From NCBI GenBank assembly GCA_963743635.1, contig CAVUQO010000002.1:64001-128000 (forward strand): a stretch of DNA of 64,000 nucleotides, given 5' to 3'. Source of the DNA: Candidatus Babeliales bacterium. Lineage in GTDB: Bacteria > Babelota > Babeliae > Babelales > Vermiphilaceae. Made by a program: the position numbers and the translations under genes. Shown one piece after another: positions 20,150-61,116 of the stretch (positions within the stretch are counted from its first letter, which is position 1; every line of letters begins with the position of its first letter). The notes below the pieces were generated by a model. That model saw only the letters and a program-made list of their open reading frames with translations. It was not told the origin of the DNA and searched no databases.

Positions 20150-20770
20150 CTATGCCTGCGTAGAGCAAAAACATTTCCCAGTTTTAAATGCTTTGGTTCG
20201 CTGGTCCAACTTGGCATGTCCTGCCACCAGTGCATAACTGAAGGCTATGTCTTCGCATGCAGTCGGCCTGCCAGCATCATTTCTTGGAGAAAAAATTCTG
20301 TTTTCCTTGAGGCAATGGATAAATTCCATTTCTGCCTTAGATGCTTCTAAAGCCTTTTCATTCACTAGGTCCTTAAGTTTTTCTTTAGTAGTTTGAAAAA
20401 TATATGGCCTTGCATATTGCCCTGCGGTAAGTACTGCAGCAACTTGTCCTACGGTAGTTGTTGGAGCTATCCATGCAGCAACTTCAATAACACCAGCGAC
20501 GACCACACTAGCAACTTGACGTGGCGTGTCGGATAGGAGAATGTGGGGTATGGTTACCAAATGGAAAATTTTTTCGGTTGTCGATAACTTTTGAATATAT
20601 TTCTCGAATGGCGATAACCCTAATTCTTTAATAATAAATTTCTCGATTGGCAGTAACTCGTTCGGTAGAATTTCAAGAGAATATGGGCGATTACAACCGC
20701 AATTTGCTGCTTCACCCCCAGCATACAAATTTGCACTAAACAGCAATGATAGAAGTGTTCTTTTTAACAT
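20150..20770 (-). CDS. Secreted hypothetical protein, C-x-x-x-N...G-x-P-T-A-C family
   Basis: Signal peptide; C-terminal motif CLKEN...AGRPTACE...VAG. Confidence 0.7.
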   Translation of the reverse strand: MLKRTLLSLLFSANLYAGGEAANCGCNRPYSLEILPNELLPIEKFIIKELGLSPFEKYIQKLSTTEKIFHLVTIPHILLSDTPRQVASVVVAGVIEVAAWIAPTTTVGQVAAVLTAGQYARPYIFQTTKEKLKDLVNEKALEASKAEMEFIHCLKENRIFSPRNDAGRPTACEDIAFSYALVAGHAKLDQRTKAFKTGKCFCSTQA

Positions 20771-20773
20771 ATT

Positions 20774-21310
20774 TTAACCCCGATAAGCGTCTTTGAAGGT
20801 GTTTATCATATCATTGCATGCTGCTTTGCCAGCCACTGCAGTAAATGCACTCGCTAGTCCTTCACATGCCGTCGGTATGCCGGCATTGTTTTTTGGCAGC
20901 TGTGCATTTTTCATAAGACAATCTCGAAAGGCATTCTTTGCCTCCCAGATTTTATTGCGTTCGCCAGCTGCCTTTAGGCTAGCCTTTCGCGCCTCACTGG
21001 GATAGCAGTAATCATAGAAGTCTCGTCCCGCAGAGGCAAAGAATACAGCGGCGTAAAGACAGATAGCTATGGATATGCCGGCACTAAGACGATTGCAATA
21101 CAGGGTAACCTTTTTCTGTGTTTCTTCGTCCCATTCTTCTGATGCCTTTATTATGTTTGGAATTATTGCAGCCACTACTAACGTTGCTACCCCAAGCCCT
21201 ATTGCACCATGCGATGATGCAGTGTGGTTAGATAATGTAAAACTTGCTGATTGCGGTGCTGCATGTAAATTTGCACTAAGCAGCAGTAATAAAAATGATT
21301 TTTTTAACAT
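20774..21310 (-). CDS. Secreted/membrane hypothetical protein, same Cys-motif family
   Basis: Signal peptide, two hydrophobic segments, CLMKN...AGIPTACE...VAG. Confidence 0.7.
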   Translation of the reverse strand: MLKKSFLLLLLSANLHAAPQSASFTLSNHTASSHGAIGLGVATLVVAAIIPNIIKASEEWDEETQKKVTLYCNRLSAGISIAICLYAAVFFASAGRDFYDYCYPSEARKASLKAAGERNKIWEAKNAFRDCLMKNAQLPKNNAGIPTACEGLASAFTAVAGKAACNDMINTFKDAYRG

Positions 21311-21313
21311 ATT

Positions 21314-22006
21314 TTAATCCTGATAAGCGGTTTTGAAGTTTGTTGTCATTTCATTGAGTGCTGCTTTACCAGCGACCAGAGTATACTGGCGCGAAAATTC
21401 ATCACACGCAGTTGGGCGACCCGCCCAATTCCTTGGCGTATGCGCATTTTTTATAAAACAATTTCTTAATCCTTGCTTTGCATCAAGATATTCATTTGTT
21501 TCACGATCTGTTTTGATGCGTGCCTTTGTTTCTTCATCTGGATAATAGCTTCTATATACATCGTTTGCTGTGGAGGCTAGTTGAGATATGCCATAAATAG
21601 CAATACCTGCACCAAGATATTTTAATGCTGGTGCCAATATTTCAGCTGCTTCACGTCCAAGCATCGGAGAGGCTTCTTTAACCTTATCGCCTAAGGTACC
21701 AGCCGCTTGGTTGCCGAGTGTTGGATCAATGTTCTGAGCGCCGTTAGCTATTCCTTCTTTAATCTTCTCCCCTATTTCCTTCGCTCCTTCACTACCTAGC
21801 AATGCAGATACATCCTTCACGCTTTGGGTATGTGTAGTAAGCACTTGATCTATTTCCTGCACCATCGCAACCCCTGCAGCCTTTGGTGGTGAGAATGCCG
21901 CCTTGAATGCGTTCCAAAAATCCTCAACCCTTCCAGCCCTGCTGGAAGTATGCGTAGTAGCAATGATAATGGCTGTGTATAAAAAAAATTTCTTAATATT
22001 GTTCAT
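21314..22006 (-). CDS. Secreted hypothetical protein, same Cys-motif family
   Basis: Signal peptide; CFIKN...AGRPTACD...VAG. Confidence 0.7.
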   Translation of the reverse strand: MNNIKKFFLYTAIIIATTHTSSRAGRVEDFWNAFKAAFSPPKAAGVAMVQEIDQVLTTHTQSVKDVSALLGSEGAKEIGEKIKEGIANGAQNIDPTLGNQAAGTLGDKVKEASPMLGREAAEILAPALKYLGAGIAIYGISQLASTANDVYRSYYPDEETKARIKTDRETNEYLDAKQGLRNCFIKNAHTPRNWAGRPTACDEFSRQYTLVAGKAALNEMTTNFKTAYQD

Positions 22007-22031
22007 AACGTTTCCCTATTGAGCTATATAG

Positions 22032-22550
22032 TTACTTTTGTAAATTTTCAAGTTCAGTGTCTAATGCAATCAATTGTTGAATATGAATTTCATATTTTTT
22101 AACAAGGCTTTTTAGTATTGCTTGCTCAATAGCGTATCGTATTGCATAGAATTTTAATGATTGAAATTCGTCCTCTTGAAACAGACCGTTTACAAGTATT
22201 CCTTCAACGCTTTTTTTGTTTTTGTAAGTCATCAAAGCATTCGTATAAAAGATATCGAGCTCCTTATAAAGCCGAGCTTCTTCCTCCTGTGCTAATGCAT
22301 TGCCATCATTTTTTTGACCCAATGCTCGCATTCTTTTATCGATGATTAGTCTAAAAACATCATGAGATTCTGATTTGAGTGAAGAAAGCAACTTGTCTTT
22401 TTCAGCAATAAGCGCGCCAAGCTTAGAGAGTTCCAGCTGTTTTTGAAAAATATTTTCTTCCATCCGTTGTATGCGCGTATCAACAGTATTCCTGCCCATT
22501 GCTGCAATAGGCACGAAGAGCATTGTTAAAAATATGGTTTTATAGTTCAT
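22032..22550 (-). CDS. Secreted coiled-coil hypothetical protein
   Basis: Signal peptide; heptad-rich helical sequence. Confidence 0.65.
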   Translation of the reverse strand: MNYKTIFLTMLFVPIAAMGRNTVDTRIQRMEENIFQKQLELSKLGALIAEKDKLLSSLKSESHDVFRLIIDKRMRALGQKNDGNALAQEEEARLYKELDIFYTNALMTYKNKKSVEGILVNGLFQEDEFQSLKFYAIRYAIEQAILKSLVKKYEIHIQQLIALDTELENLQK

Positions 22551-22596
22551 GATAATCCTTGAGTGTTAAGTATTGTTTTGATCGTTATGCAATTGA

Positions 22597-23121
22597 TTAC
22601 CACCACGATGTGGAGAATTGCTTTCTGTATTGATTGTAATTAGTTGTCAGTTTATCTGCCTCTTTCTTTCCCCCAAATATTTTGAGCACGTGTACTATTT
22701 CTCCGCATGCAGAGGGAAGCCCTGATCGCGCTCTTTTGGAAGTGTTCTTGTTTTCCATAAGGCATTGCTTTAATGCCTTTTCTGCGGTAAGCAAACCATA
22801 TTGGTTAGCAACGTCATGAGCCTCTATTTTTTCTTTCTCATTGGGGAAATTAAGAGATTTTATTTCTTGCACTATCAGACATATTCGAACAATAAGGCCA
22901 ATATATGGCTCGGCCTCAGCCCCCTTTTCAACTGCCTTTCCAATGATTGCCTTGAGGCCAGATTTTGCCGTCTCGTTAATTGCTGCATCAGCAGCCTGTT
23001 CAGTCATTGCTTTAAGTTCTGGTTGTGCGAAGGAAACGAAAACGGAATATAAGAATATCCGTTTAATATTTTGCTTGAATAATGTCATTGGGGTCCCTTT
23101 CCCACTAGTGTTTATGATCAT
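22597..23121 (-). CDS. Secreted hypothetical protein, divergent Cys-motif family member
   Basis: CLMEN...SGLPSACG; true start probably at the downstream Met (MTLFK). Confidence 0.65.
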   Translation of the reverse strand: MIINTSGKGTPMTLFKQNIKRIFLYSVFVSFAQPELKAMTEQAADAAINETAKSGLKAIIGKAVEKGAEAEPYIGLIVRICLIVQEIKSLNFPNEKEKIEAHDVANQYGLLTAEKALKQCLMENKNTSKRARSGLPSACGEIVHVLKIFGGKKEADKLTTNYNQYRKQFSTSWW

Positions 23122-23222: not shown

Positions 23223-23432
23223 TTAGATTTTCTTGGAACTGGCATTATAAGTAATATTTTTAAGAACTAATCCCATGAATAAGCCTATAACGCATGCGGG
23301 ATAATAGTTGTATTGCCAAGGCAATGGATCGTTGAATCCTAAGGAGCGCATAATGTATACAACGCTTACCATTACACCAACGATGGTCATTGTTTGATAA
23401 AACTGTTCTACAAAAATATTAAATAATTTCAT
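23223..23432 (-). CDS. Small two-TM membrane protein
   Basis: 69 aa with two hydrophobic helices; starts 9 bp after the stop of 23442..24104. Confidence 0.6.
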   Translation of the reverse strand: MKLFNIFVEQFYQTMTIVGVMVSVVYIMRSLGFNDPLPWQYNYYPACVIGLFMGLVLKNITYNASSKKI

Positions 23433-23441
23433 GGTTAACCA

Positions 23442-24104
23442 TTACGGTAATGGTAAGACTAAACCAAGGCCGAACGCACTTACGGATGCTGCTTCAATAA
23501 AAGCCACAAGACCGGTAGTTCCACCAGCAGTTGCTATAGCTCCTGTTGCTAAGCCTGCCGCTGAGGTAGCTGCAGCAGATGTGCCAATAGCAGCGGCTGT
23601 TGCGCCTGCCGCTAAAGTACCAGCGCCGGTTCCAGCGATCGCAACGGTGGTGCCTGCATTAAGAGCGGCGCCAACCGCAACGCCCGCAGTTCCACCGCTT
23701 GCCACTGTGGCAGCCGCTACTGTAGCAGCTCCTGCGGTGGCTGCAGCGCCAACACCGCCCCAACAAAGAGATTTGGTTATCCAATACAAAGCATTCGCGG
23801 TAACTGGACCACCGCCATTAAGACGACCGCCAAGGCGAAGCGCGTAGTCATTACTATTTTCCATCTTATTGAGCTTTAAATAAGCACCAGTTGTAGTAAG
23901 TTGTGCAAGCCGTTCTTCTGATATGCCTCTCAGCTCTTTATCGATGAAAGCGCGTTGAATTTTAGTTGATGTGTTTTCTGTTTCCACAAAGAAGTCATTG
24001 CCTTTGTGGGTGAGTCGCATTGCATTCATTCCTGAGAATGCAAGCATAGATAAGGCTAGAAAGCCTGTCCTGACACAGGAAGGGCCTTTCTTGATTTGTA
24101 ACAT
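23442..24104 (-). CDS. Secreted protein with LRLGGRLNGGG motif and long Gly/Ala/Thr hydrophobic tail
   Basis: Signal-like N-terminus, globular ~70 aa domain, then a glycine-zipper-like tail. Confidence 0.7.
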   Translation of the reverse strand: MLQIKKGPSCVRTGFLALSMLAFSGMNAMRLTHKGNDFFVETENTSTKIQRAFIDKELRGISEERLAQLTTTGAYLKLNKMENSNDYALRLGGRLNGGGPVTANALYWITKSLCWGGVGAAATAGAATVAAATVASGGTAGVAVGAALNAGTTVAIAGTGAGTLAAGATAAAIGTSAAATSAAGLATGAIATAGGTTGLVAFIEAASVSAFGLGLVLPLP

Positions 24105-24549: not shown

Positions 24550-26892
24550 CTATGGGGTTTGTTGTTTGGGGGCAGCAGGTTTAACTGGTTTTTGCTGCCC
24601 TTGAATGTTGGAGTATTCGATCCATGGGGTATCAGGGCCTGTTTCAAGCCAGATTCGAGTATTTAAAGAGCGCGTTTGAGGATTGAATGAGAGCTTTATC
24701 CCTTTAAGATCATAGTCTTTCAGTGATTCAATATATTTCTTAATATTCGCGTGGGAATAATTTTTGTTGTACACGCCCGTTGTATCCTTTTCTATGTGAT
24801 CGAGGGCGTCAACAAGGATACTGGTGGCTATATATGCCTCAAGTGAAAAAGTATCGTAATCATATTGATTGACATCCATTTGTTCACGATACTCTTGTAC
24901 GATGGGAAGGTTGCTTAAGCGAGGATTGGGTACAATGGCAGTCAATAAAATAGTGATTCCCTGACGTTTTGCGAAATGACGAATGGATTTTTCTCCCAAA
25001 AATGAATCGCTAAAAATAATCATATCGGTTAGATTTGCAGTGCCCAATTGCTGTATGAATTCTCGTGCTGGTATGGGGCTGGCAAAGAATCCGATAGCCT
25101 GAATACCTTCTTGTTTTAGAGCCTCTACTTGTTTCTTAAAATCTAAGGTTCCTGGTAAATAAGGCAAACCCAAGCATTTTGAGATTCCCTTTTTTTGCAG
25201 ATATGCGCGTGAAGTTTCAAAGCTTATGCGTCCGAATTCAGTATCTTGATAGAAGAAAGCAAATTTATTCATCATTTTTTGATTAATAATGTGATCAAGA
25301 AGAACATTTACTTCATCTTCGTAGGATGGACGGTAATTGATCAGGCCGTGCAATTCTGGTTTGAAAAATTCTTCTCCTCCTGTGACTGGAAAGAGGGTAA
25401 GTATTTTATTTTGTTTTATCAAATCAGTATAGGAGTCAAGAGTTAGGGCGCCAATAGGTAATAAAATGACGTCAGCATTATTTTCATTGGTTAGTTCTAT
25501 GACGTTTTTTCGGGCAAGTACAGCGTTATAGTTATCGTTATAAGTGGTGAGAGAAAGATGCAGCGTGGTTAACTCTGTATTACTGGCGTTTGCTTGTTGA
25601 ATGCGTGCGGACATACCGCGCATAACGCATTGACTGATAACGGGAAGTCCACTAATTAATCCTAGGGTGCTACCAATATTAAAATTTTTCTCAAAAGTGT
25701 TTGCACGGGAGAGAATTATACCGGTTAAAAGATTAAATGCTTCATGTTTTTTAAACCCTCGTTGATTTGATATTTGTTGGTTATACAAAACGATGGCGCT
25801 GTCTTGTATAGTTGATCCTACAGTAATAATACCAAATGCATCATAATCAAAACCAAAAAATTTTTGATGAGCCATATTGGGTGATGATAAGATTGACCAA
25901 GCTGTTGTCCCACGATCCTGTTCTAAAAGACCAAGACCAAGTAGGTCACGTGGTTCACCCGAAACGGCGCGCATCTCGTGCATCGAATTTTCAGATTTAA
26001 TAATGACTTCAACTGAGACTTTTTGGCTTGATGCTTTTTTTTGCGTAATGTCATGGTAGGTTAAGGTATCTCTGGGGGGCTTATCCCAAAAAGATCCATA
26101 TGCATCTTCATTGAGTTCGGGAGAATCAAAGCCTTCAGCTGAAATGCGAATGAAGGTATGCGGACTTTTGAGTGTACTGATATAGAATGCAAGAGGAAGT
26201 GTATTAAAAAAAGCATCAATCGATGCATTTAAGGGAATTTCGCCTGTCATGGGTTCGCCTAAGCGGGTTAAAAGTTCTCGTTTGAGTCCGTAATCCAGCC
26301 ATTTATTATTATCTTCACTGAGGCCGCGCACCCAGATCATTTGGTCGGGATTGCGATACAAAAGAGTCATGAGCGTTGTCAGCATTTCTAAGGTATATGC
26401 AGATCGGTTGAGTGTGTCTCCATACACAACGAATAAATAGTCTTTTTTTATGATTTCGAAATTGTTGTTCAGGATGCCCTGCTGCTCGAGCCACGTGAGA
26501 TCGCGCGTGAAAGAATGTAGACATCCTTCAAGATTTCCGCAGATCACAATATGAGTTGGATAGGAGAGCTGCAGCAGTGCAACCTTGCGCCCGGATAAGT
26601 CAGCTTTTTTTCGTTGTTCTATAACCTCCTGGAGTCTTTTTTTGAATAATGCGATATCCCAGAGGGGTTGCGGACTGAGGCCCCACGAGCGAAGGGTTTT
26701 GGTGAGCATATTGGGCTTAAGGCTTGCCTGATATGACGTATAGTCAGGATCATTCCAATCTTCATCATCACTGTGTGGTGCTTCGGTGTGTTGAGCTACA
26801 TAGTTTTGAAGATCACTGAGGGTGTTAAACGGCATAAGCGTTATATTGCAACAAAGGAGGAGTGTAGAAAAAATATATTTTGCATTGAGCAT
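24550..26892 (-). CDS. Secreted fusion: degenerate calcineurin-like metallophosphoesterase + type I periplasmic-binding (Venus flytrap, LivK-like) domain
   Basis: GNLEG/GDTLNRS/RGLSE/FFNTLPLA resemble PPP motifs; C-terminal NDNY, YRPSY, FFYQD..FG and EAYIA resemble branched-chain amino acid binding proteins. Confidence 0.7.
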   Translation of the reverse strand: MLNAKYIFSTLLLCCNITLMPFNTLSDLQNYVAQHTEAPHSDDEDWNDPDYTSYQASLKPNMLTKTLRSWGLSPQPLWDIALFKKRLQEVIEQRKKADLSGRKVALLQLSYPTHIVICGNLEGCLHSFTRDLTWLEQQGILNNNFEIIKKDYLFVVYGDTLNRSAYTLEMLTTLMTLLYRNPDQMIWVRGLSEDNNKWLDYGLKRELLTRLGEPMTGEIPLNASIDAFFNTLPLAFYISTLKSPHTFIRISAEGFDSPELNEDAYGSFWDKPPRDTLTYHDITQKKASSQKVSVEVIIKSENSMHEMRAVSGEPRDLLGLGLLEQDRGTTAWSILSSPNMAHQKFFGFDYDAFGIITVGSTIQDSAIVLYNQQISNQRGFKKHEAFNLLTGIILSRANTFEKNFNIGSTLGLISGLPVISQCVMRGMSARIQQANASNTELTTLHLSLTTYNDNYNAVLARKNVIELTNENNADVILLPIGALTLDSYTDLIKQNKILTLFPVTGGEEFFKPELHGLINYRPSYEDEVNVLLDHIINQKMMNKFAFFYQDTEFGRISFETSRAYLQKKGISKCLGLPYLPGTLDFKKQVEALKQEGIQAIGFFASPIPAREFIQQLGTANLTDMIIFSDSFLGEKSIRHFAKRQGITILLTAIVPNPRLSNLPIVQEYREQMDVNQYDYDTFSLEAYIATSILVDALDHIEKDTTGVYNKNYSHANIKKYIESLKDYDLKGIKLSFNPQTRSLNTRIWLETGPDTPWIEYSNIQGQQKPVKPAAPKQQTP

Positions 26893-26909
26893 TAACTATT
26901 CCTTGCATG

Positions 26910-27962
26910 TTACATGAATAAAAAATAAGTACTAAAACTATTAAGTAGAAGGTAAAAAGTAACGAGTAATATGGTTTTTGCGGTGCGACTCATGGTGGTG
27001 AGCTGATATGTGGTGATGATAAAAATAATTAATGCAAGACCAGTTAGAATAAGAATAAGGAAAAAGATGTAATCCGATGTCATGAAATAAGCAACACTAG
27101 GAGATAAATGGTCAATAACAAAACGATAACCCAATAAGCCAGTAACACTTCCGGTAGCATTGCGCAGAGCCGTTGCATCATCAAGCGAAAAACCAAAGAG
27201 AGTTATATAAAAAATCAGCAATAAAGGGAGTAAAATACTCATGACCAAACGGTATCCAATGCCATCATAATCGATGATAAACATGGCTGCCGGATTATAG
27301 ATGTCATCCCGTTTATCATAGGCATCGATTGAAGATTTTATATATCCAGTGCTTGTATCTTGCGCAACTTGATGCCATCCACGCGAGGAGAGATCCGGCT
27401 TGACGATGAAATCTCGTACGCTCGAATCCAAAAGGACTTCTTCGGGAGAAAAATACTTAAGAAGAAAGGTAATGCGCAGTCGGTGATCATCAAAGGGAAA
27501 ATTTTTGTAGTTAAGAGGAGAGGAAAATTTTGCTTTAATGTGAAAAGTGACGAGCATTTGGCCATCTGCGAGCTTAACGTCCGCTGGAGAGCGTTCAATG
27601 ATATCGCCCTGAAGTAGTGAAAATTGTTCTAAATGTTGCATTAAAAGGGCGCCCGTAGGATATCTGAACCAGAGGTAACCGGAAAAGATAAAGAGATTAT
27701 TGGTAATATCAAAAGTATGAAATTGATCGATATAGAGCCCGATCGTAACAAACGTTGCAAATCCGCCTAATTGCCGATATATGGGTGGGGTAACAACAAT
27801 AATGTCAGTGGCGCTAGGTTCAGTTGGCTGAAAAGCCTCAAGGCTTTTATGTATTACATATCCCATCCATACTATGCTGATAATCATACAGAGCATTTGA
27901 AAGTAAACAGGAACTCTGTTGCTTTTAGGCTCTTCATGGCTTAAAGGTGCTGTCTCACTCAT
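26910..27962 (-). CDS. Prokaryotic pentameric ligand-gated ion channel (pro-loop receptor) homolog
   Basis: VTIGLYI...GYLWFRY, NFPFDDHRLRI (pro-loop), W in loop, LLP at start of M1, four C-terminal TM helices, extra N-terminal TM. Confidence 0.75.
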   Translation of the reverse strand: MSETAPLSHEEPKSNRVPVYFQMLCMIISIVWMGYVIHKSLEAFQPTEPSATDIIVVTPPIYRQLGGFATFVTIGLYIDQFHTFDITNNLFIFSGYLWFRYPTGALLMQHLEQFSLLQGDIIERSPADVKLADGQMLVTFHIKAKFSSPLNYKNFPFDDHRLRITFLLKYFSPEEVLLDSSVRDFIVKPDLSSRGWHQVAQDTSTGYIKSSIDAYDKRDDIYNPAAMFIIDYDGIGYRLVMSILLPLLLIFYITLFGFSLDDATALRNATGSVTGLLGYRFVIDHLSPSVAYFMTSDYIFFLILILTGLALIIFIITTYQLTTMSRTAKTILLVTFYLLLNSFSTYFLFM

Positions 27963-45191: not shown

Positions 45192-47063
45192 ATGAAAAAG
45201 ATTATAGCGGTTACGGCACTGGCGGTGGCATTCTTGGCATGGCGCATGGGTGCGATGGAGCAGGTCGGGCAAGCAGTTACATTAGTGACCAAAGATGGAC
45301 AAAGCACAGCTATTGCAAAAAACAAGGCCGAACTCTTTGGAACTCTGCATGATCTCATGAGTGATCTATCAGAAGATGATCAGAATAAGCAGAACTTGGA
45401 AATACCGATCAAAGGAATAGCAAAAAAAGCTGACTTGGAGGCGCTCCTCAAAGATCTGGACTGGGTTGAGCAAGTGCGAAGGCAAAAAGAAGCAAACGAG
45501 AGTGAGCAGCAGGTAGCAAGAAGAATAGTAAGTGCTATGCCTCGGGTTGATTTTAATCGACAGATGTTATCGCAGCTAGTAAAGGCATTTGGGGGGGCAG
45601 TTTATTTAGGGCAGATGACATTGCTAGAGCTCTATGCGCGTCAGATCACAGATATGATTATGTCAGATGTATCAATGAGGTTATTGAGTCAAGGCGATCA
45701 GGAATACAGCGACCTTATAACGAAACTTGATTGTAATTTGGTTATTTTGCAATATATGCCAGGGGCTTGGGTTGAGTATTGGTATACGATTAAGCATGAT
45801 CAATCGGTTACATCGGTAGCGATATCAGCTGAGGGCAATAGGGCAGTGATGGGATCGTGGAATAAAGATGTCATGATTGTAAGCAGAGATGAAGCAGGAA
45901 TATGGCAAAACCGCCAAGAGGCCACTAAATTTTCGCATACTGGGGGTATTACATCAGTAGCGATATCAGGAGATGGCAATACGGTAGTAACGGGATGTAG
46001 TGATAATAGTGCAAAGATCTTGGTAAGAGATAAAGATGGAGCATGGCAAGAGCGTTATAGTTGCCAGCCTGCACAGTCACCTTCTGAGGAGAATGTAGTT
46101 TCGGTAGCAATATCAGCGGGTGGTAATGCGGTAGTAATAGGATCGTTTGATGGGAATAGCGCAAAGATCATTGAGAGAGATGCAGCTGGATCGTGGCACC
46201 TGCGTCATACCATTCCGCATGCTGGTGCGGTGCAGGCAGTAGCAATATCAGCAGGAGGAAATAAGGTGGTGACCGGAGCTAGAGACATGAAGGTAAAGAT
46301 ACAGGAAAAAAATGTGGCAGGAACTTGGCATGAGCGTGGCGACATTACGCATGGTGATTTTATTCATGCGGTAGCGATCTCAGCGAATGGTGACAGAGTG
46401 GTGACGGGATGTTTGGATAAGCATGTACGGATTCTAGAACCAAATGCTGGAGGATGGCAAGAGCGTTATAGGTATAAGTATGCGGGCTTTGTTGTATCGG
46501 TAGCGATATCAGTCGATGGCAATCGAGTGGCGGTGGGCTCTGTGGGTGAGGCAAAGATACTGGAAAATACACCAGGAGGATGGAAAGATTGTTATAGCCT
46601 TCCCAATAGTTATAGATCAGTAGCGATATCGGCAGAAGGTGATAGGGTAGTGACGGAAAGTGAGGATAGATTTGCCAAGATCATTGAGAGAGATGCAGCA
46701 GGAAAATGGCGTGAACGGGAGCGCTGTAGAATTAAGTGTGGAGATAGGGTTAATTCAGTAGCGATATCAGCAAATGGCAATGAAGTGGTGGCGGGATCTT
46801 CGGATCATAATGCAAAGATACTACATATCGAAGTATTGAGATATTTGCCGGGGCTGTCTGATTTTGATGGGTTATTACTTATACAGTTATTGTATTGGGC
46901 GTATACGAATAAGCGGAAAATAACTAACGCATGGGTGGGCAAGGTTTTGGGTGATATTTCATGGAAAGACGTAAAACCTCATGAGCAAAGGAAGATTCAA
47001 GAATGGATTCGAGATGTTATGCCTAGATCATTATTTTCCACTGCTTCTTGTTCGCTTCAATAA
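45192..47063 (+). CDS. Secreted BTB/SKP1-like + 8xWD40 repeat protein
   Basis: Signal peptide AWRMGAM; N-terminal VTL.TKDG...LFGTL.DL; 8 SVAIS..G..VVTG repeats; LPGLSDFD. Confidence 0.8.
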   Translation: MKKIIAVTALAVAFLAWRMGAMEQVGQAVTLVTKDGQSTAIAKNKAELFGTLHDLMSDLSEDDQNKQNLEIPIKGIAKKADLEALLKDLDWVEQVRRQKEANESEQQVARRIVSAMPRVDFNRQMLSQLVKAFGGAVYLGQMTLLELYARQITDMIMSDVSMRLLSQGDQEYSDLITKLDCNLVILQYMPGAWVEYWYTIKHDQSVTSVAISAEGNRAVMGSWNKDVMIVSRDEAGIWQNRQEATKFSHTGGITSVAISGDGNTVVTGCSDNSAKILVRDKDGAWQERYSCQPAQSPSEENVVSVAISAGGNAVVIGSFDGNSAKIIERDAAGSWHLRHTIPHAGAVQAVAISAGGNKVVTGARDMKVKIQEKNVAGTWHERGDITHGDFIHAVAISANGDRVVTGCLDKHVRILEPNAGGWQERYRYKYAGFVVSVAISVDGNRVAVGSVGEAKILENTPGGWKDCYSLPNSYRSVAISAEGDRVVTESEDRFAKIIERDAAGKWRERERCRIKCGDRVNSVAISANGNEVVAGSSDHNAKILHIEVLRYLPGLSDFDGLLLIQLLYWAYTNKRKITNAWVGKVLGDISWKDVKPHEQRKIQEWIRDVMPRSLFSTASCSLQ

Positions 47064-47103
47064 TCATAGGGATTCACGTCAGATTTAAAAAAATGGGGGA
47101 AAA

Positions 47104-48951
47104 GTGGAAAGAAATAAAATTATAGCAGTTGCGGCATTGGCGATTGGGATTATTGCATGGCGCATGGGGGCGATGCAGCAGGAAGTTGTGCCAGCAGGCA
47201 TGATTAGGGTGACGTTTGGTGATGGCTCAGCATTGAATGTGCCTATCAATCAAGCGCGTTTATTTGATTATTTTAATGCGATGTTGAGTTCGGAGTTTAG
47301 CGAACAGCAGGCAAGGGCGGTCAATGTACCTGAAATTAGCAGTGACTCTTTTCAGGGGTTGCTGAAAGATCTGGGTTGGGTGGAGCAAGTGCGCGCTCAG
47401 CAACGAGCAAATGAGACGGAGCAACAGGCGGCAAGAAGAATAGTGCAAACGATGCCGCTCGTCGCGCTTGATAGAGATAGATTAAGGTTATTAATAGCAC
47501 AATTACAAGCAGCCGATTTTTTACAGCAACCATCATTGGTAGAGCTCTATGCGCTTCAGATATCAGATATGATCATATCTGATGCATCGATGAGATTGTT
47601 GAGTCAGGGCGATCAAGAATATGGTCAGTTTATAAGGGTCTTAACAACTGATTTACTTCCTCATTTGCGGCGGCATATTGCGAAAAATATGCCAAAAGTA
47701 GCAATATGGGTTGAGCAATATACGGTTCAGCATAATAGTTCGGTTTACTCAGTAGCGATATCAGCAGATGGCAATAGGGTGGTGACAGGATTTGCTGATG
47801 GTACGGCAAAGATAATTGCATGGAATGGCAATGCATGGGTTGAGCAGTATACGATTAGGCATACTCGAGTGGTTAATTCAGTAGCGATATCAGCAGATGG
47901 CAATAGGGTGGTGACGGGATCTTGGGATGATACGGCAAAGATAGTTGCATGGAATGGCAATGCGTGGGTTGAGCAGTATACGATTCGGCATAACAGTGCG
48001 GTTAATTCAGTAGCGATATCAGCAGATGGCAATAGGGTGGTGGCGGGATTTGACGATAAAACGGCAAAGATAGTTGCGTGGAATGGCGTTGCGTGGGTTG
48101 AGCAGTATACGATTCGTCATAATGATTCGGTTGTATCAGTAGCGATATCAGCAGATGGCAATAAGGTAGTGACGGGATCTAGGGATAATACGGCAAAGAT
48201 AATTGCATGGAATGGCGATGCAAATGCATGGGTTGAGCAATATACGATTCGTCATGATGATTCGGTTAATTCAGTAGCGATATCAGCAGATGGCAATAGG
48301 GTAGTGACGGGATCTAATGATAATACGGCAAAGATAGTTGTATGGAATGGCAATGCATGGGTTGAGCAGTATACGATTAGGCATACTCGAGCGGTTAATT
48401 CAGTAGCGATATCAGCAGATGGCAATAGGGTGGTGGCGGGATCTAATGATAAAACAGCAAAGATAGTTGTATGGAATGGCAATGCATGGATTGAGCAGTG
48501 TACGATTACGCATAATAGTTTGTTTGGTCTTTATCTATCTCGTATTTCAGTAGCGATAGCAGCAGATGGCAATAGGGTAGTGATGGGATCCGATTATGAG
48601 GCAGAGATCGTCGTATTGGATGGCAGTGCATGTGTTGAGCAATATACGATTCGTCATAAACATTGGGTTGACTCAGTGGCGATATCAGCAGATAGTAATA
48701 GAGTGGTGACGGGATCTAGGGATAATACGGTAAAGATAGTGGGACTTTTGCCAATGCCGTTGCCAGGGATATCTGATTTTGATACCTGTATATTTGAGCA
48801 TCTATTGGTATGGGGCCAGAGGCGTAGGCAGAGAATATCTAATGCAGGGTGGGCGAGAGATATAGAGAGCAGTATCACATGGCGTGAGGTAGCACCAGCT
48901 GCTAGAGAAAGGCTTCAAACATTAATACGAGAAACAATGCAGCAGCAATAA
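47104..48951 (+). CDS. Secreted BTB/SKP1-like + 8xWD40 repeat protein
   Basis: FDYFNAMLSSEFSE and AADFL (BTB-like); 8 highly similar 43-aa WD40 repeats. Confidence 0.85.
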   Translation: MERNKIIAVAALAIGIIAWRMGAMQQEVVPAGMIRVTFGDGSALNVPINQARLFDYFNAMLSSEFSEQQARAVNVPEISSDSFQGLLKDLGWVEQVRAQQRANETEQQAARRIVQTMPLVALDRDRLRLLIAQLQAADFLQQPSLVELYALQISDMIISDASMRLLSQGDQEYGQFIRVLTTDLLPHLRRHIAKNMPKVAIWVEQYTVQHNSSVYSVAISADGNRVVTGFADGTAKIIAWNGNAWVEQYTIRHTRVVNSVAISADGNRVVTGSWDDTAKIVAWNGNAWVEQYTIRHNSAVNSVAISADGNRVVAGFDDKTAKIVAWNGVAWVEQYTIRHNDSVVSVAISADGNKVVTGSRDNTAKIIAWNGDANAWVEQYTIRHDDSVNSVAISADGNRVVTGSNDNTAKIVVWNGNAWVEQYTIRHTRAVNSVAISADGNRVVAGSNDKTAKIVVWNGNAWIEQCTITHNSLFGLYLSRISVAIAADGNRVVMGSDYEAEIVVLDGSACVEQYTIRHKHWVDSVAISADSNRVVTGSRDNTVKIVGLLPMPLPGISDFDTCIFEHLLVWGQRRRQRISNAGWARDIESSITWREVAPAARERLQTLIRETMQQQ

Positions 48952-49103
48952 TATTGAGAACAAAATGATAACGGCCTCGGGAGAAAGATAAACTTGCCCG
49001 GGGCCGTATCATTATTTCATTGTTTTTGCATGGGCAATTCTGCCAGGATAAGTGATGTAAGGTACGAGATAGGGATTCATATCAGTTTTTAAAAGGGGGA
49101 ATT

Positions 49104-55809: not shown

Positions 55810-55984
55810 AATGAAGCCTTATGGTTATTGTGTGATTTGTGTTCTTATGTCGAGCCACCTTTATTGAGGGTAATCATAGTTGATTAAAACTATTTTTTTC
55901 AAGATTTTTGAACGAAGATTCTGATTTTCTTGTGTAGTCGAAGATTCATACGCTATGGTGAATTTCAGACTCAAGGAGAGCACG

Positions 55985-57678: not shown

Positions 57679-58719
57679 GTGAATATAGTTTCTATTGTAA
57701 GTCATAGTATGTATCGTCTCAGCCTGTTGCTGCTGACCATTTTTCTTACTGGTTGTATCTGGTATGCGGGTTTCTATAATCGTCCTGCGTGCGATGCAAT
57801 ACCAAATTTAAAAGCAGTAACTCCCGCTTTATATCGGGAATGGGCGAAAAGTTCGAATATAGTTAAAACGGGTATCTATATTACGAATTTTTCCATGGTG
57901 AATATGGCGGAAAATCAATTTTTAATGGATGCATACATATGGTTAAAATTCAATCCTTTGACACTTTCCCTTGATACGGTAAGCCAATTTAGCTTTGATA
58001 AGGGGCGAATGAATGCAAAGGATCTGATAGATGCAAAAAAACTTAATGATGATTTACAAGTGCGATATCGCGTACAGGTTGAGTTTGTGAGTGTACTTAA
58101 TTATAAGTATTATCCTTTTGATAGTCATCGTCTTTATATGGTACTGAGAAGTGATGGCGTTTCTCCCCGAGAAATACTTTTAACGACTGATTATACGAGT
58201 ACTTGGTTTTGCCGTGATGCATTATCTTACAATTGGACATACGATGAACCGGCAACCGATTATGGATTTTTGGAAATGCAGCTCGATTCGCGACAGCCAA
58301 GCAAGGTAGATATGGTGCCAGCATCCGCGATATATTTTGATTTTTCTCGCAAAGATTTTCAAGATGCGATATCTATTTTTCTACCTCTTATGTGCTTAAT
58401 GTTGTTAATGCTGGGTTCGTTTTTGATTGCATTTACTCCTGCGCAAGCAGTGGGTTTTTCTGTGGTGGGCATTCTAAGTGCCATTGTGTATAGAATAATC
58501 ATTAATGGGATGAGTCCCAAAGTGGTATATTATATGCTCAGTGATCTAGGATTTATATTCGTATTTTTATGTGCATGTATGATATGCATTTTTCATAGTA
58601 TAAATGCATGGTATAAAGATGAAGAAAAAGTAAATCTTGAGCTGCTGCGGGGCGGGGAACTTACGATTTCGAGTATCGTATTTCTTGTTGGATGGTTTTT
58701 TATATTATGTGTATGGTAA
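57679..58719 (+). CDS. Prokaryotic pentameric ligand-gated ion channel homolog (copy 2)
   Basis: VKTGIYI...AYIWLKF, YYPFDSHRL pro-loop, FLP at M1, four C-terminal TMs plus N-terminal TM. Confidence 0.75.
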   Translation: MNIVSIVSHSMYRLSLLLLTIFLTGCIWYAGFYNRPACDAIPNLKAVTPALYREWAKSSNIVKTGIYITNFSMVNMAENQFLMDAYIWLKFNPLTLSLDTVSQFSFDKGRMNAKDLIDAKKLNDDLQVRYRVQVEFVSVLNYKYYPFDSHRLYMVLRSDGVSPREILLTTDYTSTWFCRDALSYNWTYDEPATDYGFLEMQLDSRQPSKVDMVPASAIYFDFSRKDFQDAISIFLPLMCLMLLMLGSFLIAFTPAQAVGFSVVGILSAIVYRIIINGMSPKVVYYMLSDLGFIFVFLCACMICIFHSINAWYKDEEKVNLELLRGGELTISSIVFLVGWFFILCVW

Positions 58720-58728
58720 GGAAATTGA

Positions 58729-61116
58729 GTGAAAAAATTATCTATAAAAGGTGCACTTTTTTTGATGCTCTGTGCCGCACCGCTCTCTGCAGGGCAAATA
58801 TTTCAAACTCTGGATATTATAAAGGCCTATGCTCAGTGGTGTCCTGCAACGTACGATATTAACAATTTTGATTATTTAAATCCTGATTATGTACCATCCT
58901 ATTCATATTTGATGCCCAATGGCTGGGATAAGCTTTTAATGACAGTCGGATTAAAAAGTAGGCCTTTATGGCAACCAAAACCATTTCTTGAGTTGTTAGA
59001 AAAGGTAACCAAAGAGCGAAATAAGGAAGGTTTGAAGGGACAATGCATTCAGCGCATTGAGGTTTCACAGGGAGATCATTTTCTGATTTGGGCTAGTTTG
59101 CATGGAGCCTTCCATTCATTCGTGCGGACACTTGAGCATTTGAAAGAACAAAGGATTATCGATAATGATTTGAAAATTATTGAGCCAAAGTATTATATGA
59201 TTTTTGATGGAAATACCATTGATCGTTCTCCCTATGGCATGGAAACATTAACCGTTATATTGCGGCTACTCGAGGCCAATCCAACACGCGTATTTTATGC
59301 GCAGGGCAATCATGAGGCTGATGGTTATTGGGAAGAATATGATTTTCATGATGAGCAAACATATAAGCTTGGCGCTTTGCAAGGATTCATGCCTCCCTAT
59401 AAAGATGGGAAAACGCCATACACCGCTGAATTATATAATTTTTTTGATACATTGCCCATGGCCTTATTTTTGGCTGCAAATACCGTTGAGCGTTCTGATG
59501 GAATCCAGATTGGGCATTATGATCGATCCGAATTCCCACTGACATTTGAAGAACAAAAATACATATTAAACGCAGTTGATACGAAAGTATTTCCTTATCC
59601 AATTTCTATACCGAAAGAGCAGAAGGTTCAAAAACCTGCAAAAGTCACCTCAATAATAGAAGGTGATTCGGCTATTGTTCCCGACTACACCTCTGATGGG
59701 TTGCGCTTTTTGCCGGCGGATCAAGGCATTGCTGCATGGTCTGTGCTTTCTTCGCCAACGATTGCCTATCAAAAAATGTATAATTTTTATATGGATTCTT
59801 ACGTAGAAATAACGATTGAGATACCTATTGAGAAAACAACTATTAAGCAACATTATCAAGATGTACGTAAGCTTACTGGTTTCAAGACTGGCCGAGTGTA
59901 TAACATGTTTTCTGGCCAAGCAGATGAACAGTTTCGCGCACAATCAAAGGTCGAACTCGTTAATGTAGGAACGACTACTGATTTGAAAGGCGCATTAGTA
60001 CACTTTGGTACAGAGCTTTACACCGGCTTAGCGCTTGCATTCAATAAACAAAATCAAGATGGCGTCATTCCAGGATGTTTGGCTGAACTCATTGTGTTAA
60101 ATGATGGTCATTCACCAATACGCAGTCGTCGTAATATTGAAGCGCTGATGAAGGACTTTGATACCAAAATCATGATTGGCCTTGACGAGACCATGTTGTT
60201 AAATGCATATCTCGATTTAGTGCTGAAAAAAGATTTCTTGGTGATGTTTCCGGTTAATGGCGTTGAAAAATTTCGCTCCCCTCAATACAGCAACGTGATA
60301 CATTATAACCATTCATATATTAATGAGTCTGAGATATCAACCGCATATATATTGGATAAGGTCGGCGCTAATAAAATTGCAGTGGTCTATGAAAAGCCAG
60401 GGGTGGGAGACGATGCCCTCCTGGGTGTGCGTATTGCATGCAAGGATAGAAAGTTTACCTCGTTAATCGAGTTACCATTCACCACGAGCATTCTTGATTT
60501 TAAAGATCAAATTGCGGCAATACATCGAGAAAATCCTGATGTGATTGCATTATTCTTGTCAGAGGCATCGGTGCATGAATTTATTCGTCAAATAGGGGTG
60601 CAGAATATCGCAGAAAAAATACTATATGGGGCGAGTTCGATTGGTGCGGAATCAGTAAGACAATACTGCCAAGAAAAAGGGTTGCGCCTTATTGTAACCT
60701 ATTTAGTACCAAATCCTTTTAAGAGTGAAATGCCCATTGTGCAGGAGTTTAGAAAGGATGCTTCAAGTAACAACGCTGTAATTTCTGCTCAGGGATTGGA
60801 AGCGTATATCATAGCGAGTATTTTTGTGGAAGGCCTGCGCATTATAAAGGGGCCTATCAATAATGATACGATTATGAAATCGTTTGAATCGATGCATGAT
60901 TATAAGTTCAAGGGTCTGACGTTAAACTTTAATAAGAACACTCGTGAGTTATTAAATACCATCTGGATTGATACTGGCGAAAATAAAGATTGGATTCCAA
61001 ATGAGGTACATGATCGCACGGAAGCCGAAATTGATACAGTGAGAAAGGCATCAGACTCCAAAAAAGAAGAGCCTCAAAAGCATGAGCCTGAAAAGCATAC
61101 AACGTCTTGGTGGTAA
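58729..61116 (+). CDS. Secreted degenerate metallophosphoesterase + periplasmic-binding domain fusion (copy 2)
   Basis: ASLHG, GNTIDRS, QGNHE and FFDTLPMA motifs; C-terminal LivK-like domain; colinear paralog of 24550..26892. Confidence 0.7.
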   Translation: MKKLSIKGALFLMLCAAPLSAGQIFQTLDIIKAYAQWCPATYDINNFDYLNPDYVPSYSYLMPNGWDKLLMTVGLKSRPLWQPKPFLELLEKVTKERNKEGLKGQCIQRIEVSQGDHFLIWASLHGAFHSFVRTLEHLKEQRIIDNDLKIIEPKYYMIFDGNTIDRSPYGMETLTVILRLLEANPTRVFYAQGNHEADGYWEEYDFHDEQTYKLGALQGFMPPYKDGKTPYTAELYNFFDTLPMALFLAANTVERSDGIQIGHYDRSEFPLTFEEQKYILNAVDTKVFPYPISIPKEQKVQKPAKVTSIIEGDSAIVPDYTSDGLRFLPADQGIAAWSVLSSPTIAYQKMYNFYMDSYVEITIEIPIEKTTIKQHYQDVRKLTGFKTGRVYNMFSGQADEQFRAQSKVELVNVGTTTDLKGALVHFGTELYTGLALAFNKQNQDGVIPGCLAELIVLNDGHSPIRSRRNIEALMKDFDTKIMIGLDETMLLNAYLDLVLKKDFLVMFPVNGVEKFRSPQYSNVIHYNHSYINESEISTAYILDKVGANKIAVVYEKPGVGDDALLGVRIACKDRKFTSLIELPFTTSILDFKDQIAAIHRENPDVIALFLSEASVHEFIRQIGVQNIAEKILYGASSIGAESVRQYCQEKGLRLIVTYLVPNPFKSEMPIVQEFRKDASSNNAVISAQGLEAYIIASIFVEGLRIIKGPINNDTIMKSFESMHDYKFKGLTLNFNKNTRELLNTIWIDTGENKDWIPNEVHDRTEAEIDTVRKASDSKKEEPQKHEPEKHTTSWW

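Follow-up and report, generated by a model that had tools for sequence, protein, structure and literature searches.

Binding-protein-dependent membrane receptors include the LuxP-LuxQ and TorT-TorS kinases, and maltose-binding protein acting with Tar. In these systems, as with the amino-terminal domains of the iGluRs, ligand capture by a Venus-flytrap domain controls a membrane signalling protein. The locus described here would share this logic, with a pLGIC as the output in place of the kinase, chemoreceptor or tetrameric glutamate receptor. For bacterial pLGICs, fusions with PBP-I at the N-terminus and PBP-II or Cache genes in the same operon were reported, and their cooperation with the channel was predicted, in the account of accessory domains by Tasneem, Iyer, Jakobsson and Aravind (2004, PMC549065). 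In DeCLIC, a pLGIC of Desulfofustis, the periplasmic domains NTD1 and NTD2 are described as packing on the ECD periphery and influencing gating (PMC9897478).

The window analyzed here is the whole stretch of DNA, 64,000 nt in length. On its minus strand, a channel gene (26910..27962, −; stop codon within the coordinates) encodes a divergent pLGIC homologue of 350 aa, and is followed by a partner gene (24550..26892, −) with an ORF of 780 aa that comprises a putative pseudophosphatase domain and a binding domain. As originally predicted, both ORFs are present and separated by 17 nt (26893..26909, −). An AAGGAA Shine-Dalgarno-like stretch was read from the sequence of this spacer, and a terminator and promoter scan, whose match numbers were not above those of shuffles, gave no terminator-like site in it. 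A second pair was found in the same window (57679-61116, +), with 27-30% identity to the first. Its channel gene (57679..58719, +) encodes 346 aa, is 27% identical to copy 1 and was recovered with the A1 profile (E 7.9e-103); its partner gene (58729..61116, +) encodes 795 aa with Peripla_BP_6 (E 3.1e-24) and Metallophos (E 2e-6) matches. The genes flanking copies 1 and 2 were EF-P/NusB-side genes, LigD and transaldolase. The host is a small parasitic-type bacterium, and its genome is 85% complete.

According to the AF2 model of the copy 1 channel (pLDDT 92.8, pTM 0.84), helices are located at residues 19-42, 238-259, 262-286, 295-319 and 326-349, with a beta-sandwich at about residues 70-234. 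The first helix is the predicted extra N-terminal transmembrane helix, TM0 (residues 19-42; 27837..27908, −; AF2 block pLDDT 85-97), a region in which a hydrophobic segment and a conserved FQ motif were aligned in 30 of the 31 relatives. It is followed by a periplasmic (extracellular-type) domain of beta-sandwich strands (residues 43-237; 27252..27836, −) and by the helices of a four-helix pore domain, M1-M4 (residues 238-350; 26913..27251, −). The pro-loop FPFD (residues 155-158; 27489-27500, −) lies inside the beta-sandwich domain. Its proline, P156, is invariant in the aligned relatives (31/31) and lines up with YPFD in GLIC; the pro-loop proline has been described as the one residue that is conserved without exception in the superfamily (Jaiteh 2016, PMC4795631). 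In the pore domain of the 31 aligned relatives, P246 and P288 were invariant, and R280, F281, I283 and S287 were nearly so. The FPFD pro-loop, the four C-terminal membrane helices and the extra N-terminal helix named in the original prediction were all borne out by the sequence and the AF2 helices.

When the channel model was used for a Foldseek search, GLIC, sTeLIC, ELIC and GABA-A were recovered at E values of about 1e-15 to 3e-15, with TM (target) of 0.64-0.74. The PDB matches included GLIC (6hyz_A, TM 0.74, rmsd 4.9 over 309 columns), sTeLIC (6fl9_A, TM 0.70) and ELIC (6ssp_B, TM 0.72), each with a probability of 1.00, which GABA-A also reached. The profile of the channel family, built from 31 sequences, reached GLIC chains at E 6.9e-14 and 188 PDB sequences at E <= 0.01; the single copy 1 sequence reached only E 1.3e-4. 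PF02931 Neur_chan_LBD was below threshold in copy 1 (residues 132-179, E 0.034, 14 bits versus a cut-off of 26), the cut-off of NCBIfam LGIC_1 (NF033918) was missed by the same protein (26.1 bits versus 500), and the Pfam scan of the copy 2 channel gave nothing at E <= 0.01. The channel family is therefore outside the reach of the curated Pfam and NCBIfam pLGIC models, and automatic annotation misses the channel. At the fold level, the copy 1 channel is a very divergent member of the pLGIC / Pro-loop superfamily, and hence distantly related to the ligand-gated channels of nerve cells, which agrees with the fold first suggested for it: GLIC was recovered both by the profile and by AF2 with Foldseek, and ELIC by the latter, and the contrary outcome, a protein without the pLGIC fold, did not occur. 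Its subunits, with five modelled membrane helices each (TM0 and M1-M4), presumably form a pentamer.

Like GLIC, ELIC and sTeLIC, the channel has a beta-sandwich periplasmic domain, a four-helix pore, the pro-loop proline and a short M3-M4 loop. It differs from them in sequence (12-18% identity), in the extra conserved N-terminal transmembrane helix and in its dedicated partner protein. A further difference concerns M2, the numbering of which assumes that P288 is 23', the one anchor on which the register hangs: in this assumed register, T/S is found at 9' (24/31) in place of a hydrophobic residue and the 9' hydrophobic gate is absent, G/A occupies 6' (24/31) and A/G/S occupies 13' (29/31), and F at 16' (30/31) with V/I at 17' gives a hydrophobic ring.

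The whole copy 1 partner was modelled by AF2 with pLDDT 87.5 and pTM 0.87. Its N-terminus is hydrophobic and forms a helix (residues 2-15) in the model, in line with the signal peptide that had been noted, and the protein is predicted to be exported. The N-terminal half (PN, residues about 23-398; 25699..26826, −) appears to be derived from a PPP phosphatase with decayed catalytic motifs. Intact PPP enzymes carry the motifs GDxHG, GDxVDRG and GNHE and the HGG histidine. The motifs read GNLEG (119-123), GDTLNRS (158-164), GLSE (190-193) and ISAEG (250-254) in copy 1, and ASLHG, GNTIDRS, GNHE and IGHYD in copy 2, so that two and four, respectively, of the six catalytic positions checked are kept. 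Among 25 relatives, none kept all six positions, five kept none and some kept five; in 19, the GDxxDRG motif retained its Arg, which contacts the phosphate. The N-half profile matched the phosphatases PP5 (E 2.4e-11, profile positions 93-237), PP2A (about 4e-9) and PP1 (about 1e-7). Metallophos was matched in 13/25 relatives at E <= 0.01 (best 3.5e-11) and, in copy 1 alone, at E 0.027, under the cut-off. In the fold searches with the whole partner (Foldseek, VIA-align), binding-protein matches to residues 398-773 took up the lists.

Two secreted paralogues with intact GD(I/T)HG, GDCVDRG, GNHE and CCHGG were found in the same genome, and both match Metallophos over the full length (70 and 64 bits); an intact paralogue shares 38% identity with PN of copy 1 over 93 residues. 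Because the catalytic motifs are lost here and kept in the same-genome paralogues, PN is best regarded, from its motifs, as a pseudoenzyme derived from the PPP family and not as a phosphatase, although some members may have residual activity since some relatives keep five of the six positions. The profile matches and the tabulated motif decay thus agree with the PPP/calcineurin-like half with lost metal ligands that had been described.

The C-terminal half (PC, residues 399-765; 24598..25698, −) is a two-lobed type-I periplasmic binding domain of the Peripla_BP_6/LIVBP-like (Venus-flytrap) kind, as its earlier description as LivK-like implied. Peripla_BP_6 was matched above the cut-off in copy 1 (residues 423-728, E 9.8e-25, 88.4 bits versus 31.7) and was found in 25/25 partner relatives. 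Structure searches gave the Venus-flytrap fold: 4kv7 was retrieved with Foldseek at E 2.2e-24 (TM (target) 0.85) and was aligned to the model range 399-769 by VIA-align with Z 40.8 and rmsd 2.6 over 349 residues, and further matches were obtained with iGluR ATDs and class C GPCR flytraps, among them the GluK3 ATD (Z 27.3) and mGlu (Z 32.5). Relatives carry the JGI label 'ABC-type branched-subunit amino acid transport system substrate-binding protein', and public pipelines likewise name the partner as a Liv-type substrate-binding protein. The partner shares the Peripla_BP_6 fold with LivJ/LivK; it differs from them in its extra N-terminal putative pseudophosphatase of 400 aa, in its constant linkage to a channel and in that no Liv-type permease or ATPase was found adjoining either copy. 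The two partners are the only two Peripla_BP_6 matches in the genome (85% complete). A role as the binding protein of a Liv-type ABC importer was considered and rejected: the one BPD_transp_2 permease in this 85%-complete genome is located on another contig, in a separate operon that also codes for an ATPase and an ABC_sub_bind protein, and thus already has its own binding protein.

The channel was present in 163 of the 261 Dependentiae-type genomes surveyed. The channel gene lies directly upstream of the partner on the same strand in 26/29 partner loci, and the remaining three are partner arrays with a channel at the head. In a scripted comparison of the 150 best channel places with the 150 best PN matches, a PN match lies <= 600 nt downstream of at least 87 channel places. 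When the scripted count was combined with manual reading of coordinates and fetched loci, 128 of the best 150 channel loci had partner modules clustered with the channel or fused to it, 15 were solo channels and seven were unclassified. The linkage holds at 25-45% protein identity, over many families. The pairing is therefore kept across the phylum, sometimes as one polypeptide, and the loss of the pairing in other genomes that would have spoken against the original prediction was not what the neighbourhood survey found. The solo channels include L088, L089, L090 (three tandem channels), L093, L096, L102, L103, L112 and L116, and are scattered in a midpoint-rooted FastTree, which was read without support values. 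Since these 15 of the best 150 loci lack a partner, the channel can exist without it, and the partner is an accessory that the channel does not always require.

Fusions of the modules were also observed. Single ORFs of the CHAN-PC type are found as two tandem genes (767 and 815 aa) in L080 and as P0162 (743 aa), and single proteins of the CHAN-PN-PC type (1070-1112 aa) are P0032, P0110, P0119, P0132 and P0153, with Peripla_BP_6 in 5/5 and Metallophos in 4/5. In all seven distinct domain-scanned fusions, and in the second tandem L080 copy, the accessory part is C-terminal, after M4. In the established pLGIC topology, M4 ends on the extracellular/periplasmic side, so the position of the fused partners is consistent with an exported stand-alone partner. 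Other loci hold PC, CHAN and PN as three separate genes (L111, L113, L117), with PN-only genes beside the channel in L113 and, as a PN protein of 710 aa, in L111; further layouts were PN-3xPC (L084) and, in L083, a single channel with four full partners behind it. In genome G196, which holds L080, the search with the PN profile gave nothing at E <= 1e-10.

Because relatives keep the two proteins together or fused, the partner is most likely the sensor subunit of the channel. The two genes probably specify one periplasmic receptor-channel, in which PN-PC would be a modular sensor subunit docked on the pLGIC. The exported PN-PC would sit on the periplasmic domain of the channel, at about one per subunit, and a small molecule caught in the PC cleft would open or modulate the pore, thereby converting a host- or environment-derived metabolite signal into ion flux. 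PN would serve as a structural adaptor or second binding site, not as an enzyme. The analysis shows the channel and PC folds, the decayed motifs, the conserved linkage, the natural fusions and, in the 85%-complete genome, no ABC partner, whereas physical docking, gating in trans by a ligand, the nature of that ligand and the function of PN are inferred. The proposed placement would resemble that in DeCLIC, the NTDs of which are N-terminally fused jelly-roll lobes (PMC9897478), whereas the modules here are PPP-like and Venus-flytrap and usually form a separate polypeptide.

The docking was modelled with a single channel ECD (residues 43-240) and partner residues 22-765. The pair scored 0.59 versus 0.00 for the best of three controls, which was graded as weak support; the three runs scored 0.63, 0.01 and 0.59, and the prediction with one ECD and the partner returned no interface. 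According to the report of the tool, the runs share >= 80% of contacts, with partner pLDDT >= 84. In the calibration, the mark was reached by 116/157 solved complexes and 2/215 mismatched pairs; scores at the mark and up to 0.60 covered only 18/157 solved complexes, yet both of the passing mismatches.

Gene linkage alone cannot tell docking from a hand-off, in which PC would concentrate a small molecule and release it to the orthosteric site of the channel, with no stable complex or conformational coupling. Such a mechanism was proposed for operonic binding proteins (Tasneem et al. 2004, PMC549065), and the solo channels suggest that gating may need no more than the domain of the channel itself. 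A hand-off is nevertheless unlikely here, since the CHAN-PC and CHAN-PN-PC fusions tether the modules 1:1, which suits a subunit better than a diffusible carrier, and a conserved, non-catalytic PN would be idle in a pure hand-off. Binding-protein-dependent uptake, with the pentamer as the conduit for a PC-captured solute and with transport in place of signalling in a reduced-genome organism, would be in keeping with partners that are the only Peripla_BP_6 proteins of the 85%-complete genome and have no Liv-type permease, with an M2 lining that is small or polar and has no 9' hydrophobic gate (assuming P288 = 23'), and with up to four partner genes behind one channel, like the substrate-binding proteins of some transporters. 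No pLGIC is known to us to transport organic solutes, and the ring of F at 16' (30/31) and V/I at 17', in a register taken from one assumed anchor, also argues against uptake, which we consider improbable.

PN might also be the real sensor or effector: by binding a protein or compound that carries phosphate, or through weak phosphatase activity, it would regulate the channel, leaving PC secondary. The relatives with five of six catalytic positions, the Arg kept in 19/25 and the PN-only genes that adjoin channels in the three-gene layout (L113; L111, 710 aa) point in this direction. This arrangement has little probability in view of the PN-less CHAN-PC fusions (L080, P0162), of G196 without a PN-profile match at E <= 1e-10, and of the 25 relatives, in which the full motif set occurs in none and five have zero of six positions. 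Independent roles under co-transcription only, for example an ion-homeostasis channel and a secreted host-directed protein, were already disfavoured and are extremely improbable, given that the linkage lasts at 25-45% identity across many families and that there are independent fusion architectures. One receptor-channel with a docked sensor subunit is thus the reading that we prefer.

Compared with the systems of Tasneem et al. (2004, PMC549065), a periplasmic binding-protein fold that is fused to, or operonic with, a pLGIC is common to both. The PBP-I domain here is supplied in trans or C-terminally after M4, whereas the fusions in that account are N-terminal to the ECD; a degenerate PPP-phosphatase module is present here and is not mentioned in its account of accessory domains; and the arrays here, unlike the systems described in it, are expanded across one phylum. 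The word 'phosphatase' is absent from the text of Jaiteh 2016 (PMC4795631), and no experimental test of a flytrap-pLGIC pairing was found in the literature searched. The pairing had been called unrecognised in the original prediction. This does not wholly stand, because the 2004 account (PMC549065) had already put forward, in general terms, binding proteins as partners of bacterial pLGICs; the new part is the pseudophosphatase module. Neither that module nor the C-terminal fusions were found in the literature searched.

If the docking is true, the partner would be a detachable sensor of a bacterial ion channel. A more far-reaching proposal, which we put forward tentatively and regard as rather doubtful, is an undescribed class of ionotropic receptors, in which the agonist-recognising part would be a separate flytrap on a dead phosphatase, plugged in 1:1, and the channel would be gated by a ligand-loaded protein, without direct action of the small molecule on it. 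If this were true, the up to four divergent partner genes per channel would let one pore read several ligands, and the family would have converged, from a pLGIC, on the combination of flytrap and pore known from the glutamate receptors.

The channel gene of copy 1 (350 aa, 26910..27962, minus strand) is followed in the same direction by its partner gene (780 aa, 24550..26892, minus strand), and the 17-nt spacer between the two ORFs carries, on reading of the sequence, an AAGGAA ribosome-binding-like stretch. No terminator-like site was detected in this spacer, and the whole promoter/terminator scan stood at or below shuffle counts. Copy 2 consists of a channel ORF of 346 aa (57679..58719, plus strand) and a partner ORF of 795 aa (58729..61116, plus strand), with 27% identity to copy 1 in the channel and ∼29% in the partner. 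The genome comprises 1.45 Mb in 3 contigs and is 85% complete, and the window covers 64001-128000 of contig 2.

Several neighboring features were recorded. Directly downstream of partner copy 1, the low-complexity stretch 23431-24104 contains a Gly/Ala-rich ORF of 220 aa (minus strand) overlapping an Ala/Pro-rich ORF of 138 aa (plus strand), with no Pfam match. At 20150-23121 (minus strand), four tandem small paralogues (174-230 aa) with signal-peptide-like starts share a C-terminal motif of approximately ...AG(R/I)PTAC..., and a fifth, unrelated ORF among them is coiled-coil-like; Pfam matches were found in 0/3 of the ORFs scanned there. Just upstream of channel copy 2 (55955-57606, plus strand), the 3'-phosphoesterase and the primase-polymerase domain of LigD have separate genes, which adjoin and overlap slightly. 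No formamidase gene was seen among the scanned flanking genes of either copy. At 45192-50927 (plus strand), where the GC skew within the window is strongest (0.26-0.33), three WD40-repeat proteins of ∼610 aa are encoded in tandem; such arrays are unusual among bacteria and a typical feature of host-associated lineages.

As a single sequence, channel copy 1 matched Pfam Neur_chan_LBD at E 0.034 (14 bits, cut-off 26), NCBIfam LGIC_1 at 26 bits (cut-off 500) and GLIC chains at E ∼1e-4. When a profile of 31 family members from related loci was used, GLIC was reached at E 6.9e-14, and 188 PDB sequences were matched at E ≤ 0.01. The AlphaFold2 model built on the 31-member alignment (pLDDT 92.8, pTM 0.84) contained a beta-sandwich followed by four helices, and its Foldseek matches were GLIC, sTeLIC, ELIC and GABA-A subunits (E ∼2e-15, probability 1.00, target-normalised TM 0.64-0.74). 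The pLGIC fold put forward in the original prediction was thus borne out by both the profile and the structural matches.

The prolines P156 of the pro-loop (FPFD), P246 in M1 and P288 after M2 were invariant in 31/31 channels. The extra N-terminal helix (TM0; 24 residues, 19-42) was predicted with high confidence and could be aligned in 30/31 members, which share a conserved FQ motif, the remaining one having a shorter called start. With TM0 counted, the predicted topology is N-in, followed by the periplasmic domain, M1-M4 and an end outside. For the numbering of M2, P288 was assumed to be 23' on the basis of the HMMER alignment with GLIC. Within this assumed register (n = 31), G/A was found at 6' (24/31), T/S at 9' (24/31), A/G/S at 13' (29/31), R at 15' (29/31), F at 16' (30/31) and E/D at 19' (26/31). 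Because of these column counts, with P288 as 23', a hydroxyl residue would replace the usual hydrophobic residue at 9', and a phenylalanine ring would sit higher in M2. Longer channels of 541-577 aa, with an extra N-terminal region of ∼200-250 aa before the channel, were also observed, both at genomic loci (L081:1387-3072, L082:967-2655 and L115:4357-6012) and among further protein-cluster representatives (P0053, P0107, P0117, P0134, P0145 and P0165). No Pfam match to this region was obtained in the three scanned (L081, L082 and P0053), and a partner gene was still present 3' of the longer channel in 3/3 loci examined.

The partner was modeled as a whole protein with pLDDT 87.5 and pTM 0.87. 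Its C-half (PC, residues 399-765) is a type-I periplasmic binding domain, matching Peripla_BP_6 at 88.4 bits; the partner model matched 4kv7 in Foldseek (E 2.2e-24, TM 0.85) and gave Z 40.8 with an rmsd of 2.6 over 349 residues in VIA-align. The fold matches of PC included binders of Leu/Ile/Val, 4-hydroxybenzoate, urea, acetamide (AmiC), GABA and pyroglutamate, as well as class C GPCR flytraps and glutamate-receptor ATDs, and because they span so many ligand classes, the fold does not name the ligand.

For the N-half (PN), all matches listed by Foldseek and VIA-align for the whole partner were to binding proteins, and a word-seeded homologue search, of limited sensitivity, yielded 23 proteins. 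Partner copy 1 alone matched Metallophos at E 0.027, and 13 of 25 partner relatives did so at E ≤ 0.01 (best 3.5e-11). The profile of 25 N-halves matched PP5 at E 2.4e-11, PP2A at ∼4e-9 and PP1 at ∼1e-7 over the catalytic domain's first half, which indicates that PN is derived from PPP-type Ser/Thr phosphatases. Together with the Peripla_BP_6 match, this upheld the proposed architecture of a Metallophos-type N-half joined to a Peripla_BP_6 C-half. The motifs read GNLEG, GDTLNRS, GLSE and ISAEG in copy 1 and ASLHG, GNTIDRS, GNHE and IGHYD in copy 2; when six catalytic positions were checked in the 25 relatives, 0 to 5 were kept and all six were present in 0/25. Two intact stand-alone PPP-type paralogues of 435 and 513 aa, both with hydrophobic N-termini, are encoded in the same genome, one on contig 3 (L120:838-2145, minus strand) and one at ∼57-58 kb of contig 2, just upstream of the window (L121:844-2385, minus strand). 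They carry GD(I/T)HG, GDCVDRG, GNHE and CCHGG and match Metallophos over the full length with 70 and 64 bits, and one of them aligned with the partner N-half motif against motif (38% identity over 93 residues, E 2e-17). These stand-alone phosphatases are likely to be active relatives of the dead N-domain. Because the motifs have decayed and an intact paralogue aligns motif to motif, PN is read, at the sequence level, as a pseudoenzyme with its origin in a family of secreted phosphatases in this lineage.

The pairing was surveyed across 261 genomes of the phylum. On the partner side, the gene immediately upstream, in the same orientation, was a channel ORF at 26 of the 29 best loci outside the window's own; the other three (L004, L021 and L028) belong to tandem partner arrays that start with a channel gene. 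On the channel side, the family profile detected the channel in 163/261 genomes, and 397 channel clusters at 50% identity reached E ≤ 1e-30. The channel was absent from whole families (f3 0/16, f5 0/14, f8 0/4, f14 0/5 and f17 0/2) and nearly universal in f18 (34/35) and f2 (36/41). The PN profile gave a similar single weaker match in channel-less genomes (E 1e-17 to 1e-39), and adjacency was used instead of a genome-level 2x2 table because E-values could not separate PN from the intact paralogues. Among the best 150 channel places (of 282 matches), at least 87 had a same-strand PN match that started ≤ 600 nt downstream, a lower bound given that the best 150 of 578 PN-profile matches were used; the median gap in the places with a PN match downstream was 60 nt. 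The remaining 63 places were read from coordinates and 29 further loci: 41 had PN and/or PC either in the same gene cluster or fused to the channel, 15 were solo, and 7 were not classed (contig end or locus not read). By this partly manual tally, 128 of the best 150 channel places were linked to PN/PC, and the expected conservation of the pairing across genomes therefore held from both sides.

The solo channels were scattered in a midpoint-rooted FastTree of 71 channels; one is followed by EF-G (L112) and another by a TolB-like protein and an OPT transporter (L091). One locus (L090:803-3975) is a channel-only expansion, with three tandem channel paralogues of 347-354 aa and no partner gene on the 8.3-kb contig. 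A related-loci scan with a 9-sequence channel alignment, which is pattern-based and no proof of phylum restriction, returned 17 loci, 3 of them labelled 'uncultured Pseudomonadota' and the rest in Dependentiae/Babeliales-labelled or unlabelled MAG records; the named records of relatives read Candidatus Dependentiae or Babeliales, besides these three and several 'uncultured bacterium'.

Channel, PN and PC were found in various layouts. Besides the channel followed by PN-PC, as in the window, there were one channel followed by four full partners (L083), channel-partner-channel (L022, L023, L026 and L029), PC, channel and PN as three genes (L113, L117 and L111), and separate PN and PC genes plus a 1599-aa PN-3xPC protein (L084). 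In the three-gene layout, an ORF of 706 aa, possibly a fourth conserved component, lies 3' of the PN gene in two genomes (L113:7327-9447 and L114:1308-3428), and one of the two weakly matched Alginate_exp (outer-membrane barrel; E 0.003). Five distinct 50%-identity representatives of 1070-1112 aa (P0032, P0110, P0119, P0132 and P0153) are channel-PN-PC fusions, with the channel at ∼2-350, Metallophos at ∼455-593 (4/5) and Peripla_BP_6 at ∼730-1075 (5/5). In L080, channel-PC fusions of 767 and 815 aa are encoded in tandem; the first was read as a single open frame in which M4 leads, over ∼50 residues, into the binding domain. P0162 (743 aa) has the same build. [quoted passage not shown]

Complex prediction was performed with a single channel extracellular-type domain (residues 43-240, not the pentamer) and partner residues 22-765, with an alignment for each. 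The pair scored 0.59 (0.63, 0.01 and 0.59 in three runs) against 0.00 for the best of 3 controls, where the score mark is reached by 116/157 solved complexes and 2/215 mismatched pairs, 18 of these solved complexes and both passing mismatches doing so at 0.60 or under. Contact agreement between runs was at least 80% and partner pLDDT at least 84, while no interface was given, and the prediction weakly suggests a complex. Mere co-transcription of two independently acting products is regarded as a very unlikely rival; from the linkage taken together with the two fusion architectures and, weakly, the complex prediction, we consider that PN-PC probably associates physically with the channel.

As to function, in the best-supported reading PN-PC would be an accessory sensor subunit, about one per channel subunit as in the fusions, and closure of the flytrap around its ligand would be coupled to gating. 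We regard this whole reading as moderately likely, ligand-dependent gating through the partner being its inferred part. Less likely rivals are ligand hand-off, in which PC passes its ligand on, and binding-protein-dependent uptake, in which the ligand enters through the pore. The partner as an ABC-transporter component was set aside: the single BPD_transp_2 permease of the genome shares an operon on another contig with an ATPase and an ABC_sub_bind protein of its own, and the only two Peripla_BP_6 matches in this 85%-complete genome are the two partners. PN as the true sensor is a further, less likely rival; PN is most simply an adaptor because it is non-catalytic yet conserved, and it is dispensable where PC is covalently tethered, as in L080, in whose genome no PN-profile match was found at E ≤ 1e-10.

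Tasneem et al. 2004 (PMC549065) describe bacterial pLGICs that are fused to PBP-I at the N-terminus or accompanied in operons by PBP-II or Cache genes, and propose that such domains cooperate functionally with the channel. The pairing had been taken as unrecognised, which does not apply to the general theme, because cooperation was proposed in 2004; it does stand for the pseudophosphatase-binding-protein partner, on which no paper was found in the literature covered. [quoted passage not shown] A literature search that took in a minority of subscription-journal papers returned nothing on pseudophosphatase-binding-protein fusions as partners of a pLGIC, on pLGICs in Dependentiae, or on a pLGIC with an operonic substrate-binding protein in bacteria.

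The channel subfamily is phylum-wide yet missed by curated models, and both genes are currently mislabelled: the nearest Atlas clusters of the channel read 'hypothetical protein', and the partner carries the annotation of an amino-acid transport protein, its relatives publicly as 'ABC-type branched-subunit amino acid transport system substrate-binding protein'. PN is a clear example of a phosphatase fold taken into service without its catalysis, and the intact paralogues of this genome are there to compare it with. The natural channel-PN-PC and channel-PC chains are ready-made constructs for asking whether a Venus-flytrap can gate a pentameric channel, a question standing since the 2004 prediction of binding-protein partners. 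In reduced-genome intracellular bacteria, the system may be a main route for host-metabolite sensing.
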